Position numbers and translations under genes: made by a program. DNA of 64,000 nucleotides. Origin: Gemmatimonadota bacterium (GTDB taxonomy: Bacteria > Latescibacterota > UBA2968 > UBA8231). This document shows positions 16,085-58,126 of the stretch, one piece after another. The stretch lies in contig JAYOYH010000003.1 in NCBI GenBank assembly GCA_038153405.1, forward strand, positions 107,258 through 171,257, in the 5' to 3' direction. The notes below the pieces were generated by a model. It saw only the letters and a list, made by a program, of their open reading frames with translations. It made no database searches and was not told the origin of the DNA. The stretch's first letter is position 1, and every line of letters begins with the position of its first letter.

Positions 16085-16195
16085 CGGCTGGAGAATAAAG
16101 ACTCAACTCTGTTAGGCTGGAAAAATACCACGCGTTATAGGGTTAGTCAAGGCAATTGTAAAAAATTATTTAATTGAAATTTAACTCCTTTACGG
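16085..16195. promoter_or_regulatory. AT-rich divergent promoter region
   Basis: The sequence tgtaaaaaattatttaattgaaatttaac sits in GC-rich context between the divergent genes 15062..15964(-) and 16334..18277(+). A TTGACA hexamer lies at 16259. Confidence 0.4.
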
Positions 16196-16333
16196 GGCTT
16201 TTCTGCCGGTCTAATTCAGTCCCCTGCCTGCGATTTAGTCGACGGGACAGACGAGACATTGACAACGGACTCGTTGGAACCATTGATTAGGGCAGAGAAA
16301 ACCCTGCCCCCATCACGGGCACCTGCCTAAGGA

Positions 16334-35676: not shown

Positions 35677-37482
35677 CTACCCCGTGGAAACTTCCCAAAC
35701 TCCCTGTTTGTTTTTCTCGACGTAGCGCTTCTTGCCCCCGCGCATCATCGGCACGAGGCGGTTGAGTTCCTTGTCCTGCTTGGCCAGCACGAACTGACCC
35801 TCTTTTTCTGGGTCGGGCATGATCTTGTAGGGCACCATGCGATCGCCAGCACCCGTGTGAATAATCACTCGGCCAAACTGCACTCCCATTTCGCGCTCCT
35901 CGGCGGTCAGGCGCGAATCGACCGTGCCCGCTTCGGCCTTTTCTACGGCCGCCTTGGCTTTGCGCGCAGCCTCCCGTTCGGCAGTGACCTTCTTTTCCGA
36001 AGCGGCGATAATTTCTTCGCTGCGCTCTTGGATTTCCGCCGTTTCCTCGGCCGTGATATCCGGATAGAGTTTCTCGAGGCGCGAGCGCAGAAACGTTTGC
36101 GCCTTTTCTCTCGCCTCGTCCACGTCCTCCGTCGAGCGAAAGAATTCGTCGACAATGAGATTGATCCGCAGCATGCGCATCTGCTTGCGGAACGGCGTCG
36201 CCTTGAAAACCGACGTTACCAGACCGATCAGGCTGAGCATAGCCGCCGCCAGTCGCACCCGCTCCTCGCGCTCGGGCGCATTGAGCCGAGCCATGACCTG
36301 TGCCTTGCTAAACTCGCGCAGTTCGGCGATAAAATTCTCCTCCACCAGCAGCTTCTCCACCCGGTCCTGGCCGCGTCGCACGATGTAGCTATAGGGCGGC
36401 AAGCGCACCGCGATCATGCGCACTTCGGCATCGCGCCGATCCATCATTTCAATAATTCGGTGCATGGTGTCGTATTCGCCAATCAATTCGTCTAGCATTT
36501 CGCGCCAGACAATTTGGCCGCCATCCGGCGCGTTGACCAATTCCTTGTGGCGAATGAGAAAGCCCAGAGCCAAATCGTAGCGCGGGTCAATGCGCTTCAG
36601 CGCTTCGAACACCTGCGCGTAAATCGCCACATAGTCCACTTCTTCGCGGATCTTTTTTTCGAGGCGATCGCGCGCCTGGCCGCTCAAGATGCTGTTGCGT
36701 ATTTTGCCGGCTTTTTCGCGCTCGATCTTGCCGCTGCGCACGCCGATATCGACCTGGTGCAGTTTGCGCAGGCGCTCGGCATCTTCGGCGCTGATATGCC
36801 CCTGCTCAATATGCGCATCCAGGTTCTTTACCAGTATTTGCATTTGCTGCGCACGCTGCGCGGCCAACCCCTTGCTCTGTTCGTCTTCGCGCTGATTTAT
36901 CTCCTGCTCGTCGGGCTCGGCAGCCGGCCCTTCCAGCAGGCGATCCAAGCCAACTTCCTCCTTGGCCACCACCGACTTTTTTTGCGCGCTGATTTGAGCG
37001 AGTCGAGCAGCCGCGCGTTTTTTCTGCGGATCTTCCTTGCCCATTAAGGTGTTGGAGACCGCGCGCAGACAGTTTTTCTGATTTATCTCCTGAGGCGTCA
37101 AACCGACGTTGGCCAGCACCGCGCGGACCTGATCCTGGCGGAGCAAATCGCGCAGTTCGCCCGAAGCGTGTTCCTGCACCTGACTTATATTCCAGCCCCG
37201 CTTGCGTATCATGCTCAACAGCGAGCGAATAACCCAATTCTCCACGCCGGGAACGGCAAAAGCCTGGGGGTTTTCCGCCAGCATCACTCGGGCCACCCGC
37301 TCCAAGTCGTCTATCGCTTCTTGCGTCGGCCCACTCCCCATCAGCGACTGATAGCCCTCAACCATTGCCTTGTGAAAATGAGCGAGGGAAATAAGCGGCT
37401 CCCCGGCCGTTAGACGGTCTGCAACAAACAGCGCGAGTTGGCTGCGCAACTCGGGGGTAAGCGAATCTGTATTCCGCTCCAT
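35677..37482 (-). CDS. hypothetical highly charged (K/E/R-rich) soluble protein
   Basis: 601 aa. No TM segment, no signal peptide, no recognisable motif. Long predicted helical and coiled-coil stretches. Confidence 0.45.
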   Translation of the reverse strand: MERNTDSLTPELRSQLALFVADRLTAGEPLISLAHFHKAMVEGYQSLMGSGPTQEAIDDLERVARVMLAENPQAFAVPGVENWVIRSLLSMIRKRGWNISQVQEHASGELRDLLRQDQVRAVLANVGLTPQEINQKNCLRAVSNTLMGKEDPQKKRAAARLAQISAQKKSVVAKEEVGLDRLLEGPAAEPDEQEINQREDEQSKGLAAQRAQQMQILVKNLDAHIEQGHISAEDAERLRKLHQVDIGVRSGKIEREKAGKIRNSILSGQARDRLEKKIREEVDYVAIYAQVFEALKRIDPRYDLALGFLIRHKELVNAPDGGQIVWREMLDELIGEYDTMHRIIEMMDRRDAEVRMIAVRLPPYSYIVRRGQDRVEKLLVEENFIAELREFSKAQVMARLNAPEREERVRLAAAMLSLIGLVTSVFKATPFRKQMRMLRINLIVDEFFRSTEDVDEAREKAQTFLRSRLEKLYPDITAEETAEIQERSEEIIAASEKKVTAEREAARKAKAAVEKAEAGTVDSRLTAEEREMGVQFGRVIIHTGAGDRMVPYKIMPDPEKEGQFVLAKQDKELNRLVPMMRGGKKRYVEKNKQGVWEVSTG

Positions 37483-37734: not shown

Positions 37735-37935
37735 GCTTTTTTCTCATTATGAGAGTTTTTGCTTTTTATTTTCAAAAAGAGAAAATATATAATTCATTTA
37801 AAAACATTGTTTTATATTATTTTACCATGTCTCCTTGGATTGAATTTCTCATTTTTAGAATAAATACCCCCTGTGTCCGCTTCGAAAAATGCCCCATTAA
37901 AATTATAACGTTTTTATTAACAGGTATTTAGCCAC
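37735..37935. promoter_or_regulatory. about 200-bp AT-rich island (about 25% GC) upstream of groES
   Basis: Read directly. Strong compositional contrast with the roughly 65% GC background. Contains A/T-tracts. Confidence 0.6.
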
Positions 37936-53412: not shown

Positions 53413-53575
53413 CCCCGATGGGCCTCGCTCACTCCATTCTTTTTTGCCACCGCTCCTGCAGACGCACCGCTGTCCCCCGTTTCTCCAGCGCCACAGCGCG
53501 GCCAGACGCGCTTTCCAGCCCTCGGGCAAAAGCCCTATATTAGCCCCTCAGAACCGCTTCCGCGAAAGGAACCCC

Positions 53576-54316
53576 ATGCACAACCCCATTAGAGAAGCGC
53601 TGGCTGCCGGCCGGCCTTCGATTGGCAGCTGGCTCAACCTCGGCTCACCGCTGGCCGCCGAAGTTATGGCCGCCGCCGGCTTTAGCTGGCTGTGCGTCGA
53701 CGCCGAGCACACCGCCTACGATATGGAGTCCATCGCCCACACCTTTCGCGCCATTGAGGCCCGCGGTGCCATACCGCTCGTGCGCGCCTGGGACCACGAT
53801 CCGACCACCGCCGCCCGCCTGCTCGACGCGGGCGCCTACGGCATTGTATTTCCCCACGTCAGCACCCCACAGCAGGCCGAAGGGCTAGCTCGGGCCATGC
53901 GCTTTCCGCCCCGCGGCATTCGCTCGGCCGGCACCGGGCGCTGCGCCACGCTGGCCCCCGACTACCGCAAGGTCTTCGACGATATCGTTCTCTGCATTCC
54001 CCAAATCGAAGATATGGAAGGCGTCGAAAACGCCGAGGCCATCGCCCGAGTCGACGGCGTCGATATCGGCTTTCTCGGCCCGGGTGATCTGGCCATGTCG
54101 ATGGGCGTCGAACCGGGGCACCCCGATCACGAAGCGGCCCTGCTGCGCTTTTTAGCGGGGTGTCAGCGCGCCGGCACCAGCTGCGGCATTCCCACCAAGG
54201 ACGCGGCCAGCACGCGCCGGCGCCTCGAGCAGGGATTCCGCTTTATCGATATCAATAACGACCTGCGTTTTCTCGAGGCCGCCGCCGCGCAGATTCTCTC
54301 AGAAATAGAATCTTAA
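53576..54316 (+). CDS. HpcH/HpaI-family 2-keto-3-deoxy-acid aldolase (copy 1)
   Basis: ATG 53576. 246 aa. (beta/alpha)8 class II aldolase with DxE metal ligands (CVDAEH, QIEDME). Confidence 0.75.
   Translation: MHNPIREALAAGRPSIGSWLNLGSPLAAEVMAAAGFSWLCVDAEHTAYDMESIAHTFRAIEARGAIPLVRAWDHDPTTAARLLDAGAYGIVFPHVSTPQQAEGLARAMRFPPRGIRSAGTGRCATLAPDYRKVFDDIVLCIPQIEDMEGVENAEAIARVDGVDIGFLGPGDLAMSMGVEPGHPDHEAALLRFLAGCQRAGTSCGIPTKDAASTRRRLEQGFRFIDINNDLRFLEAAAAQILSEIES
53601..54143 (+). repeat. direct repeat unit 1 (about 543 bp, 772-bp period) inside aldolase copy 1
   Basis: Out-of-frame ORFs 53622..53888(+) and 53645..53857(-) translate identically to 54394..54660(+) and 54417..54629(-). One divergent patch of about 20 bp at 54080..54100. 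Confidence 0.85.
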
Positions 54317-54347
54317 ATACTGCATCACAATACTTTATAACGATTAT

Positions 54348-55094
54348 ATGAATAATTCCATACGGCAAATATTGGCTGCCGGCCGACCTTCGATTGGCAG
54401 CTGGCTCAACCTCGGCTCACCGCTGGCCGCCGAAGTTATGGCCGCCGCCGGCTTTAGCTGGCTGTGCGTCGACGCCGAGCACACCGCCTACGATATGGAG
54501 TCCATCGCCCACACCTTTCGCGCCATTGAGGCCCGCGGTGCCATACCGCTCGTGCGCGCCTGGGACCACGATCCGACCACCGCCGCCCGCCTGCTCGACG
54601 CGGGCGCCTACGGCATTGTATTTCCCCACGTCAGCACCCCACAGCAGGCCGAAGGGCTAGCTCGGGCCATGCGCTTTCCGCCCCGCGGCATTCGCTCGGC
54701 CGGCACCGGGCGCTGCGCCACGCTGGCCCCCGACTACCGCAAGGTCTTCGACGATATCGTTCTCTGCATTCCCCAAATCGAAGATATGGAAGGCGTCGAA
54801 AACGCCGAGGCCATCGCCCGAGTCGACGGCGTCGATATCGGCTTTCTCGGCCCCAACGATCTGTCTCTATCGATGGGCGTCGAACCGGGGCACCCCGATC
54901 ACGAAGCGGCCCTGCAAGCCGTTTTGCAGGCCTTTACCCGCGCCCAAAAGCCCTGCGGACTGTCCGTGCGCGGCGCGGCCAACGTGCGCCAACGCCTGCA
55001 GCAGGGTTTTCGCTTTGTCGATGCGGCCAGCGATCTGCGCAGCCTAGAGGGATGGGCCATCGCCCAATTGCGCGCAGTCAACTCGCATGCGTAG
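54348..55094 (+). CDS. HpcH/HpaI-family aldolase (copy 2)
   Basis: 248 aa. Residues about 10..190 are near-identical to copy 1. N- and C-termini are divergent. Confidence 0.75.
   Translation: MNNSIRQILAAGRPSIGSWLNLGSPLAAEVMAAAGFSWLCVDAEHTAYDMESIAHTFRAIEARGAIPLVRAWDHDPTTAARLLDAGAYGIVFPHVSTPQQAEGLARAMRFPPRGIRSAGTGRCATLAPDYRKVFDDIVLCIPQIEDMEGVENAEAIARVDGVDIGFLGPNDLSLSMGVEPGHPDHEAALQAVLQAFTRAQKPCGLSVRGAANVRQRLQQGFRFVDAASDLRSLEGWAIAQLRAVNSHA
54373..54915 (+). repeat. direct repeat unit 2 inside aldolase copy 2
   Basis: Offset of exactly 772 bp from unit 1. Confidence 0.85.
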
Positions 55095-55106: not shown

Positions 55107-55991
55107 ATGAACATACTCAATTTCGGCTCGCTCAACATCGATCTGGTCTACCAGGTCCCGCACATCGCGCGGCCAGGGGAAACCATTTCGAGCACGCAGC
55201 ACAGCGTCTTTGCCGGGGGCAAGGGAGCCAATCAGTCGGCCGCCTTAGCCTTGGCGGGAGCCGATGTGTACCACGCCGGACAAGTGGGACAAGACGGCGC
55301 CTGGCTGGTGGAAAAGCTGAAAGCGATGGGCGTCGATATGCAGTGGACGCGCGTGGTGGCTGAGCGCACCGGACACGCCCTGATCCAGGTGGCCGAAAGC
55401 GGCGAAAACAGCATCGTGCTCTTTCCCGGCGCCAACGCCACCCTGCAGCGGCCCCATATAGACCGCGTCATTAGCCGTTTCGAAAAAGGCGATATACTGC
55501 TCTTGCAGAATGAGATAAACGATATTTCGTATATTTTGACGCAGGCGGCCAAACGCGGCATGCGCATCGCCTTTAATCCCGCTCCTTTCCATGCCGACAT
55601 CCTCACCTACGGCCTCGAACACGTCGAATGGCTTCTGCTCAACGAGACGGAAGCGGCCGGATTGCTAGCGGAGTCGCTGGAGCCGGATGCGGCATTGGCC
55701 GCTCTCGCTCGGCGCTATCCGCAGGCGCACGTAGTCCTCACCCTGGGAACAGCCGGCGTCCGCTTTCGCTCCCCCCAGGCGACCTATGCCGTGCCGGCGC
55801 GCGCCGTGCACAGCGTCGATACCACGGGTGCCGGTGACACATTTATTGGCTATTTCCTCGCCGCCCTGAGCGGAGGCCACGATGCGCTAACCGCGCTCCA
55901 GCACGGCGTTAGCGCCGCCGCGCTCTGCGTGACCAAACCGGGTGCAATGGATTCTATACCAAGCTCAGAAGAAGTTCGTAACTTATTGTAG
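55107..55991 (+). CDS. PfkB-family carbohydrate kinase (ribokinase / 2-keto-3-deoxy-sugar-acid kinase type)
   Basis: NIDLVY...GGKGANQS N-terminal motif. C-terminal DTTGAGDTF. Confidence 0.75.
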   Translation: MNILNFGSLNIDLVYQVPHIARPGETISSTQHSVFAGGKGANQSAALALAGADVYHAGQVGQDGAWLVEKLKAMGVDMQWTRVVAERTGHALIQVAESGENSIVLFPGANATLQRPHIDRVISRFEKGDILLLQNEINDISYILTQAAKRGMRIAFNPAPFHADILTYGLEHVEWLLLNETEAAGLLAESLEPDAALAALARRYPQAHVVLTLGTAGVRFRSPQATYAVPARAVHSVDTTGAGDTFIGYFLAALSGGHDALTALQHGVSAAALCVTKPGAMDSIPSSEEVRNLL

Positions 55992-56006: not shown

Positions 56007-56996
56007 ATGTCTAAAAAAATTCTTATCACCGCCCAATTCCACAACGACGAATTCGCCTCGAGCGAACGGCAGCAGGGCATGGAACGCCTCGCCCAATACG
56101 GCGAACTCGTCCGGGAGAAGGAGGTGCTCAATGCCGAAGATGCCGAGGGCGTCATCGCCTCCGTAGCCAGTTCATCGCTCTATACGGACGAATTCTACGA
56201 AGCGGCCAGCGACCTGCGGATCATCGCGCGCTGGGGAGTGGGCTTTGACAAGGTCAACGTCGCCGCTGCCACGCGCCACGGCGTGCTCATCACGGTGACG
56301 CCCGTGCACATGGATACCGTGGCCGAATACACCATCGCCCAGTGGATGGCCACGCTCAAACGCGTTTACACGCTCAACCGCCTCTCGCACGGAGGGGACT
56401 TCTCCATTATTCGCACCTACGAGGCACAGGGCTCGACCCTGGGACTCTACGGCTGTGGGCGCATCGGGCAAGAAGTAGCCCAGCGCGCCCGCCCCCTGCT
56501 CGGCGATAGGGGCCGCCTGCTGATCTACGACTCGCGCCCCGATATCGGTGAGATTGCCGCGCGCTTCGGCGCCGAAGCCGTCGATTCGCCCCGCGCCCTA
56601 TTTGAACAGTGCAATACCGTCAGTCTGCACGTATCGGGCGACGAAACCATTGTCGATTACGATCTCCTCTCGGCCATGCAGCCGCACGCCTCGCTGATCA
56701 ACCCCTCGCGCGGCAACTTAGTGGACGACGCGGCGATCCACCGCGCCATAGGCGAAGACAAGCTCTACTATTACGTAGTCGACGACCCGGTAAATGGCCC
56801 GCGCGCCATCCACAAAGATCACCCGCGCATTATCTGCACCAACCACAACGCCGGCATTTCCGTCGAATCGACCATCCGCCTCGACCAGAAGACGATTGAG
56901 CAGGTGACCGATACGCTCGAGCACCGCCGCCCCGATTTTATTCTCAACGAGGAGGTCCTCGAACACCCTCGGGTCAAAGAGTGGCTAAACGCATGA
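56007..56996 (+). CDS. D-isomer-specific 2-hydroxyacid dehydrogenase family protein
   Basis: LGLYGCGRIGQEVAQRA NAD-binding motif. ATGA overlap with the next gene. Confidence 0.7.
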   Translation: MSKKILITAQFHNDEFASSERQQGMERLAQYGELVREKEVLNAEDAEGVIASVASSSLYTDEFYEAASDLRIIARWGVGFDKVNVAAATRHGVLITVTPVHMDTVAEYTIAQWMATLKRVYTLNRLSHGGDFSIIRTYEAQGSTLGLYGCGRIGQEVAQRARPLLGDRGRLLIYDSRPDIGEIAARFGAEAVDSPRALFEQCNTVSLHVSGDETIVDYDLLSAMQPHASLINPSRGNLVDDAAIHRAIGEDKLYYYVVDDPVNGPRAIHKDHPRIICTNHNAGISVESTIRLDQKTIEQVTDTLEHRRPDFILNEEVLEHPRVKEWLNA

Positions 56997-58126
56997 AAAT
57001 AATTCGCTTAGAGAGCATACCACTCAGCAATCGGGGCATGCTCCTACGCGTCGAGACCGACGAGGGGCTCGTCGGTCTGGGTTCGCCGATGAACTACGAG
57101 CACGGACGCACCGTGGCGCGGGCCATCGAGGATATGGGCGAGTATTTAATCGGCCGCGATCCGCTGCAAATCGAAGACCACTGGCAGACCCTCTTTCGCT
57201 CCTCCTATGCGCGCCAGATGCCCATCCTGCTATCGGCGCTCAGCGGCATTGAAATGGCCTGCTGGGACCTGCTGGGAAAAAGCGTTGGACTCCCGGTATG
57301 GAAACTGTTGGGAGGGTCCGTTCGCGACGCCATCCGCGTCTATGGAGGAGCCGGTGGCGCCACCCCCGAACAGGCCGCCGCTAGCGCTCGCCGCAGTGTC
57401 GAAGCCGGATTCACCGCCGTGAAGACCACGCCCTTTCCCGAGGCCGTCCGGCCCATCGAAACGCCGGCCGGCATCGATCGCGTCGTCACCCATATCGCCG
57501 CCATACGCGAGGCCATTGGCCAATCGGTCGATTTGGCCATCGACTTTCATCGCGCCACGAGTCCGCCCTTTGCCAAAATGCTGCTGCGCGAGTTGGAGCC
57601 CTTTCGCCCACTCTTCGTCGAAGAGCCCACCAAAGCCATGCCCGACAACATCGGCCCGCTGCGCGAGCTCGCCCAATCGACCTGTATCCCCATCGCAACG
57701 GGCGAGCGCTGCGCTACGCGCTGGGGCTTTCGCGAGATTTGCGAGACCAAGGCCGCCGCCATCATCCAACCGGATATTCGCCACTGCGGCGGCATTCGCG
57801 AAATGCGCCATATCGCCGCGCTGGCCGAAGTGCACGAAATACTCGTAGCTCCGCACAGTGCCGCCGACCCGCTCGGAATTGTCGCCGCCGTGCACGCGAT
57901 GGCGCCGACGCCGAATTTCTTACTCATGGAGTTTGGCGGGGGTGGAGGAGAAGACTTTTTCGTCGAACCGCTGCACATGATAGACGGCTTTGTACAACTA
58001 CCTCAGGGGCCTGGTTTGGGCGTGGAAATTGATCCCGACGGCCTCGAACGGATGCGGCAACGCGGCCCGTGGCGACAGCGCACGATGCGCCGCCACCGCG
58101 AAGACGGCAACTTCTCCGACTTTTAG
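56993..58126 (+). CDS. enolase-superfamily sugar-acid dehydratase (mandelate racemase/muconate-lactonizing-enzyme family)
   Basis: ATG 56993. MKIIRLESIPL...GLVGLGSP N-terminal capping domain. KxK/D/E/D metal-ligand pattern in the barrel domain. Confidence 0.7.
   Translation: MKIIRLESIPLSNRGMLLRVETDEGLVGLGSPMNYEHGRTVARAIEDMGEYLIGRDPLQIEDHWQTLFRSSYARQMPILLSALSGIEMACWDLLGKSVGLPVWKLLGGSVRDAIRVYGGAGGATPEQAAASARRSVEAGFTAVKTTPFPEAVRPIETPAGIDRVVTHIAAIREAIGQSVDLAIDFHRATSPPFAKMLLRELEPFRPLFVEEPTKAMPDNIGPLRELAQSTCIPIATGERCATRWGFREICETKAAAIIQPDIRHCGGIREMRHIAALAEVHEILVAPHSAADPLGIVAAVHAMAPTPNFLLMEFGGGGGEDFFVEPLHMIDGFVQLPQGPGLGVEIDPDGLERMRQRGPWRQRTMRRHREDGNFSDF

Follow-up and report, generated by a model that had tools for sequence, protein, structure and literature searches.

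Why should two neighbouring genes be almost identical over most of their length and yet differ at both ends as old paralogs do? This question is raised by a tandem pair of HpcH/HpaI aldolase genes, here called ald1 and ald2, in a stretch of 64,000 nucleotides (nt) from a bacterium labelled as Gemmatimonadota (GTDB phylum Latescibacterota; GenBank assembly GCA_038153405.1, contig JAYOYH010000003.1, positions 107,258 to 171,257). This whole stretch is referred to as the window, and its positions are counted from its first letter. Both open reading frames (ORFs) are intact and lie 31 nt apart (Table 1). The answer that we favour, with a probability of roughly 85%, is real and recurrent interlocus gene conversion, which would have led to concerted evolution of the two genes. 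The window genome is denoted W and its two genes W1 and W2; the genes of other lineages are named alike (B1 and B2, C1 and C2, D1 and D2, E2). Sequence resembling ald1 is called type 1 and sequence resembling ald2 type 2.

Aligned in register at an offset of 772, positions 53601-54143 are the same as 54373-54915 save for position 53614 and eight mismatches within 54082-54097. A preliminary description of the locus had proposed a 543-bp near-identical core with a period of 772, and the alignment agrees with it apart from one extra mismatch, that at 53614. The divergent patch reported inside the core is present as well, its size being 16 nt and not 20. The two copies agree without a break for at most 467 nt (53615-54081); beyond the patch they agree for another 46 nt (54098-54143). 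When the 103 mismatches were shuffled over the 741 aligned positions in 20000 trials, the maximum run was 92, and the observed run exceeds chance. Out-of-frame ORFs had been described as identical and are so, 53622-53888 matching 54394-54660 and, on the minus strand, 53645-53857 matching 54417-54629. Identity across the whole genes had been named as the result that would speak for a simple recent duplication; the alignment shows instead that identity stops before the gene ends. Four of the first eight residues differ, as expected from the reported difference of the gene starts, and residues 190-245 differ at 33 positions. The last ~60 residues share 43-46% of their amino acids, in keeping with the 40-50% claimed for the last codons. 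Outside the tract, nucleotide identity in 30-nt windows is 27-73% over the 3' 170 nt and 47% over 53570-53599. The ald2 gene is a mosaic, in which the remnant of a type-2 head is followed by a core resembling ald1 and then by a patch and a tail that are both type 2. The ald1 gene is the ortholog of the single-copy gene of related genomes, with 94% identity to ald1 of the closest relative and 63-85% to the single-copy genes of 30 other genomes.

The strongest evidence comes from the comparison with orthologous loci, in which every sequence is a metagenome contig or a metagenome-assembled genome (MAG), mostly the output of short-read assemblers. The tandem pair occurs in the same operon (ispG-ald1-ald2-pfkB-dehydrogenase-dehydratase) in four further lineages. 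Relative B (GCA_038128265.1, contig JAYPJE010000009.1) is the closest genome to the window. The other three came from a full-length ald2 search and contig look-ups. Lineage C is represented by eight contigs from different JGI and ENA samples and lineage D by two contigs shown out of three on record. Lineage E is a strain in which ald1 has 6 differences from B1 over 741 sites (~0.8%). The type-2 orthologs of ald2 in these lineages are B2, E2 (P0048), C2 (P0126) and D2 (P0127). The source labels on close homologs range from Candidatus Latescibacterota and Gemmatimonadota even to Planctomycetota MAGs.

Site patterns were read from a four-way nucleotide alignment of W1, B1, W2 and B2, a site being genome-specific when neither copy of one genome matches either copy of the other. 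Between nt 25 and 504, the core, there are 57 genome-specific sites against a single paralog-specific one. Between nt 569 and 741, the tail, the proportion is reversed, with 50 paralog-specific against 2 genome-specific sites, and over the lineage comparisons the tails hold 50-63 paralog-specific and 0-2 genome-specific sites. Synonymous divergence (dS) in the core is 0.69 between W and B and 0 within either genome. The core therefore groups by genome and the ends by paralog, with tract limits that vary by lineage. Lineages C and D show a weaker form of the same pattern, 12 genome-specific against 4 paralog-specific core sites. Their core dS is lower between paralogs (0.10-0.19) than between orthologs (0.30-0.33), which shows that conversion has acted there too, less recently and over a shorter stretch. 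The longest run of identity between the two copies is 478 nt in B, about 352 nt in E, 162 nt in D and 62 nt in C. The 46-nt segment behind the patch is identical between the copies in the window, and B1 and B2 differ there at 8 of 46 sites.

The most recent change can be followed at strain scale. Three substitutions between B and E (nt 143, 240 and 258) are common to both copies, and over nt 378-503 B2 equals B1 while E2 keeps ten differences, several of which match the bases of W, C and D. Judged from these patterns, B and E, only ~0.8% apart, already differ by one conversion event, and at least four or five separate events are needed to account for all lineages. The earlier proposal of old paralogs with a converted core is thus supported; its single recent event gives way to a process that recurs in at least five lineages. 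A side observation in the segment overwritten in B2 concerns codon 142 of E2 (L051 2041-2043), where CCT has become ATA, a Pro to Ile change just before the Q-I-E metal-ligand motif that is unique among all copies.

The heads of the type-2 genes bear on the direction of copying. The first 52 codons of C2 and D2 are ~60% identical to any type-1 head, and the type-1 heads are 60-88% identical to each other, out to the orthologs of Opitutales and Bryobacterales. In W2 and B2 only the first eight codons of the type-2 head are left (MNNSIRQ-), and codons 9-52 are type-1-like. The divergent head of C2 and D2 shows that ald2 once differed from ald1 along its whole length and was overwritten by ald1-like sequence. 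Compared with the single-copy gene of L004, C1 has 88% identity in the head, 88% in the core and 87% in the tail. All cores are as far from the single-copy orthologs as one would expect from the flanking genes, which indicates that the spreading sequence is of the ald1 type, with a net direction from ald1 to ald2.

The tails give the age of the pair. Type-2 tails are 67-86% identical across lineages, and their identity to the type-1 tails found in those lineages is 41-46%. The two types diverge at an equal pace (amino acid identity of 70% for W2-C2 and 69% for W1-C1). The ratio of nonsynonymous divergence (dN) to dS is 0.14-0.16 in type-2 and 0.05-0.07 in type-1 tails, with dS saturated. The ald2 tail is thus under purifying selection, which, with the patch residues kept in all type-2 genes, marks ald2 as functional. 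Between the two tail types, dN is 0.5-0.6, equal to that between W1 and the Opitutales ortholog (0.58). A neighbour-joining tree of the flanking genes ispG, dehydrogenase and dehydratase gave ((W,B),(L003,L030,L005)),((C,D),L004), a topology according to which the pair predates the clade and ald2 was lost at least twice. L003, L030 and L005 are without both ald2 and pfkB (ispG-ald1-dehydrogenase-dehydratase), as if by one deletion, and L004 is without ald2 only. A single type-1 gene was the only form in 30 more distant genomes and 35 JGI metagenome loci, and scans of GTDB genomes (36 loci) and JGI metagenomes (35 loci) gave no tandem pair besides that of relative B.

The source of ald2 could be an ancient duplicate that underwent an early burst of change, or an old transfer. 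There is no sign of a recent foreign origin, the G+C and the third-position G+C (GC3) of the unconverted type-2 segments matching the host. L038/L039 and L040 were considered as donors of the type-2 tail and dismissed: they are frameshifted single-copy genes, and the tail of L040 is about equally far from both types. In these loci (L038 4694-5387, L039 4694-5387, L040 4627-5423) the aldolase is frameshifted into two overlapping ORFs, in one case on a 2.1-Mb long-read contig; the split ORFs look like sequencing or assembly indels, not truncated paralogs. A constraint at the nucleotide level, such as an embedded RNA or an overlapping gene, does not account for the identity, since synonymous sites of the core change freely from one genome to another.

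What mechanism would produce such a mosaic? Homologous recombination between the direct repeats, presumably of the RecA type, would copy ald1 sequence into ald2 non-reciprocally and repeatedly. The latest events in the window genome would have erased the differences over codons 9-169 and again over codons 175-189. Left unconverted would be the AT-rich spacer with the first 8 codons, the three residues around Asp171 and ~57 codons at the 3' end. The tail and the spacer may stop conversion passively, through loss of homology. The patch is read as selected because it survives in W as an island of 8 mismatches between the 467-nt and 46-nt runs, and selection against losing type-2-specific residues may have kept it. 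The residues concerned, 170, 173 and 174, flank the metal-ligand Asp171, and they are G170, A173 and M174 in all ald1 copies and N170, S173 and L174 in all ald2 copies, even though the type-2 genes vary there at synonymous positions. The two enzymes may differ in substrate range or in assembly by way of the patch and the alpha6-alpha8 region.

Several points tell against recurrent conversion with selected limits, and against the history given here for ald2. The direction of copying rests on only two lineages that keep the type-2 head, C and D. The donor family of the type-2 tail was not found, a tail-only protein search having given just 5 fragments, two of which proved to be the frameshifted single-copy genes described above. 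The residues N, S and L of the patch also occur in some single-copy orthologs, which weakens their functional weight. The MAG and metagenome origin of all the sequences, given above, belongs here too, as does the length of the 467-nt exact repeat, which exceeds any k-mer; an assembler would have threaded one graph node twice, and any sparse true differences midway along the core might have been lost by merging. Finally, three contigs of lineage C at ~2x coverage (L052-L054) carry a single chimera of head 1 and tail 2, with three different switch points.

It is possible, though clearly the less probable view, that conversion is real and its limits are purely passive, with no functional difference in patch or tail and with ald2 a redundant copy on its way to erasure or loss. 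The tract reaches further in W and B than it does in C and D, ald2 has been lost at least twice, the three patch residues are found in single-copy orthologs, and dN/dS is roughly double in the type-2 tail compared with the type-1 tail. Redundancy fits poorly, however, with a type-2 tail that is still clearly constrained in spite of saturated dS, and passive limits fit poorly with the survival of the W patch between two identical runs and with patch amino acids that are the same in all five lineages despite synonymous changes.

Assembly is a further rival. That the tandem pair or the perfect identity of the core is an artefact of repeat or strain collapse or of mis-threading seems improbable to us. 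The junction from tail 1 through the spacer and head 2 into the core fits within one read, and it is present in five lineages and in no fewer than 12 contigs, which stem from various samples and assemblers; for lineage C there are independent assemblies from at least 8 samples. Near either end of the tract (alignment positions 30-72 and 474-489) the genome-specific sites are 5-47 nt away from copy-specific ones, so that they are seen in copy-specific k-mers and not in a shared node. The 46-nt segment at 54098-54143 is bracketed by copy-specific stretches, and its two copies match in W but differ in B. Sparse differences between the copies were kept by the assemblers in C, D and E, and a collapse would leave a single chimera where two genes are seen. 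The most that assembly may have done is to merge a few real differences midway along the core in W and B; it cannot create the pattern.

The three chimeric contigs deserve a description of their own (P0091; L052 406-1146, L053 109-849, L054 299-1039). Two ENA studies are their source, and one of these, which contributed two of the three, also gave a contig of lineage C. Their switch points fall at nt 277-338, 235-275 and 199-224, respectively, each inside a shared run; upstream, all three have a flank matching C1, and downstream, two of them have one matching C2. They are probably products of assembly collapse or mis-threading and possibly real deletions by unequal crossover. Such deletions are reported from evolution experiments (PMC13626634).

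A recent tandem duplication of ald1 followed by fast divergence of the ends of the new copy, with no conversion at all, can be set aside as very improbable: the confinement of ald2 to a narrow clade, with a single type-1 gene at the more distant loci, and a type-2 tail for which no outside donor was found would suit it, but type-2 tails are orthologous in W, B, E, C and D and change at the pace of type-1 tails with saturated dS, dN between the tail types equals that to an Opitutales ortholog, the heads of C2 and D2 also differ from ald1, and a single duplication cannot yield cores that differ between genomes at 57 sites yet are identical within each.

Recurrent conversion thus remains the preferred explanation, and the positions of the features on which it bears are collected in Table 1.

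Table 1. Positions in the window of the two aldolase genes, their parts and neighbouring features
Feature	Position	Strand	Observation
ald1, type-1 HpcH/HpaI aldolase, 246 amino acids	53576..54316	+	PF03328 E = 1.8e-26, 93.3 bits
ald2, type-2 HpcH/HpaI aldolase, 248 amino acids	54348..55094	+	PF03328 E = 2e-28, 99.6 bits
Putative converted tract, ald1 copy, codons 9-169	53601..54081	+	matches 54373-54853 except 53614
Putative converted tract, ald2 copy (probable recipient)	54373..54853	+	codons 9-52 type-1-like; C2/D2 have a divergent type-2 head there
Patch in ald1 (GPGDLAM), apparently unconverted	54082..54097	+	8 mismatches in 16 nt
Patch in ald2 (GPNDLSL), apparently unconverted	54854..54869	+	N170, S173, L174 kept in all five type-2 genes
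Second identical segment, 46 nt	54098..54143	+	equals 54870-54915; identity only in window genome
Type-1 tail of ald1	54144..54316	+	93% amino acid identity to B1 tail; 43-46% to ald2 tail
Type-2 tail of ald2	54916..55094	+	85-86% to B2 tail, 68-70% to C2/D2 tails, 28-50% to type-1 tails
AT-rich spacer, 31 nt	54317..54347	+	G+C 25-27%; 5' limit of homology together with first ald2 codons (54348-54372)
Sigma-70-like promoter match, weak lead	53512..53541	+	TTTCCA, 18-nt spacer, TATATT; 9/12 positions
PfkB-family sugar kinase	55107-55991	+	Pfam/NCBIfam
D-2-hydroxyacid dehydrogenase	56007-56996	+	Pfam/NCBIfam
Galactonate-dehydratase-like enolase-superfamily enzyme	~56993-58126	+	Pfam/NCBIfam

What are the two enzymes? 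Both score well above the curated cut-off of PF03328 (25 bits), and their PDB matches reach E = 1e-40 to 1e-43. Residues H45, R70, E145 and D171 of both proteins align with H45, R70, E149 and D175 of E. coli HpaI (PDB 4B5S). Judged by their sequences, membership in the HpcH/HpaI family is certain and the assignment of a substrate is not, because both genes score far below every NCBIfam equivalog cut-off: they reached 103-173 bits against 369-441 for HpaI (TIGR02311), GarL (TIGR03239, NF007849) and RhmA (NF007521), the HpaI model, for example, giving 173 against a cut-off of 369. The cluster, as defined by Pfam and NCBIfam matches, begins with a GFO/IDH/MocA oxidoreductase and ispG, followed by ald1, ald2 and three downstream genes. 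A dehydratase together with an HpcH aldolase forms the core of sugar-acid routes that cleave a 2-keto-3-deoxy acid to pyruvate and an aldehyde, as with GarL, RhmA and HpaI. The two genes are best explained as encoding class II pyruvate aldolases of a sugar-acid catabolic operon. In Pfam family and in catalytic and metal residues they are like E. coli HpaI (4B5S/2V5J), GarL (1DXE) and Acinetobacter baumannii HpaI (7ET8); these characterised HpaI and GarL enzymes differ in that they are not described as part of a converted tandem pair.

The structure of A. baumannii HpaI (7ET8) offers a view of where the converted and unconverted parts would lie. In that enzyme the metal ligands are Asp177 and Glu151, Arg72 is the anchor of the C4-OH, the aldehyde moiety touches the neighbouring subunit through loop 110-136, and helix alpha8 (236-253) docks on the neighbouring trimer (PMC8560999). 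By homology, Ald1 and Ald2 would be TIM-barrel hexamers with alpha8 docking on the neighbour trimer; the neighbour loop would fall in the converted core, identical in both proteins, and the unconverted tail would span roughly alpha6 to alpha8. A more speculative extension, which we regard as doubtful, is that the mosaic as a whole is kept by selection. The identical core would let the two enzymes co-assemble as mixed hexamers, the differing alpha6-alpha8 region and Asp171-flanking residues would widen or switch the substrate range, and conversion of the core would be favoured since it matches the interfaces, as has been proposed for the uniformity of tuf. A second speculative reading is that the raised core GC3 of C and D reflects GC-biased conversion in a single bacterial gene pair. 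The measured GC3 in C and D (L041, L049) is 0.71-0.79 in the converted core (codons 53-165), 0.62-0.67 in the head (codons 1-52) and 0.54-0.62 in the tail (codons 186-246); in the single-copy sister L004 the values are 0.59, 0.54 and 0.51. This rise of GC3 in the core hints at GC-biased gene conversion, but the sample is too small and is confounded by differences in genome G+C.

The spacer between the two genes had been singled out as anomalously AT-rich together with the start of ald2. The low G+C is real: the 60-nt window at 54300-54359 has 25% G+C and belongs to the lowest 0.16% of the 60-nt windows in the 64 kb. It is not exceptional in the operon, as the dehydrogenase and dehydratase genes also start with low G+C, 33% over their first 30 nt. 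An AT-rich spacer of 31-32 nt is present in all five lineages, with a poorly conserved sequence. For the region from -30 to +30 of ald2 the minimum free energy is -2.1 kcal/mol, a value equalled or bettered by 184 of 200 shuffles. The simplest reading of the spacer is an open, unstructured translation-initiation region for an internal cistron. A consensus scan gave no promoter or terminator in the spacer, and Rfam gave no family there, only sub-threshold microRNA noise. The promoter match upstream of ald1 is the sole one near the pair, where a shuffled region averages 0.5 such matches. Elsewhere in the window, where the 60-nt minimum of G+C is 10%, the only stretches as AT-rich or more are 37736-37860 and 16121-16200. 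The former is rich in T and A runs and is located between two ORFs whose ends are at 37482 and 38039; an insertion scar, or an intergenic region with a promoter or terminator, could explain it.

Two further observations concern the junction of ald2 with pfkB and pfkB itself. In B and E, ald2 is five codons longer than in the window (TGG for TAG, ...AWTASQ; window 55092-55094, L001 7517-7535), and the extended gene overlaps the pfkB start by 4 nt. The PfkB kinase changes far faster than its neighbours. Between W and B it is 84% identical in amino acids, against 94-97% for ispG, ald1, the dehydrogenase and the dehydratase, and between W and both C and D it is 60-61% identical, against 87-89% for the neighbours (window 55107-55991; L001 7532-8416; L041 5780-6673). 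Relaxed constraint, replacement or positive selection could account for this rate.

The significance of the locus lies in partial concerted evolution of a metabolic enzyme pair that extends over several lineages of uncultured bacteria, with events seen from strain to family scale. A tree of whole aldolase genes would falsely suggest independent recent duplications in each lineage. The locus also illustrates how repeats yield chimeric single-gene contigs in low-coverage assemblies, a matter of MAG quality. Residues 170, 173, 174 and 190-246 are places to seek differences of specificity among HpcH aldolases.

How does the pair compare with known systems? Recurrent conversion between bacterial paralogs is well documented for tuf, for the amo genes and for the tandem mtrA pair (PMC6053082). 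Wang & Chen 2018, in that article, catalogue prokaryotic cases of enduring concerted evolution and cite Lathe & Bork 2001 and Kondrashov et al. 2007; its main text mentions no aldolase. The process and its mechanism are already known, and the aldolase pair is an unusually well-resolved new example of them. As in tufA/tufB, the paralogs are closer within a genome than the orthologs between genomes, the conversion appears recurrent and ongoing, and one copy is lost in particular lineages. Whereas the tuf copies are dispersed, redundant and homogenised over the whole gene, the aldolase genes are adjacent and homogenised over the first two-thirds only, with a conserved paralog-specific tail and active-site patch. 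The methanogen genes mtrA-1 and mtrA-2 (Wang et al. 2015, as related in PMC6053082) are likewise in tandem and undergo concerted evolution in part of the gene, the other parts having a different history; in that archaeal case gene fusion and domain shuffling play a part, whereas both aldolases share the same single-domain architecture. The closest likeness in principle is to the model for HMA4 of Arabidopsis halleri (bioRxiv 10.1101/2025.10.29.685298), in which conversion homogenises most of a tandem pair and selection keeps divergent islands. The HMA4 case, as that source presents it, differs in being eukaryotic and in concerning recent duplicates under positive selection.

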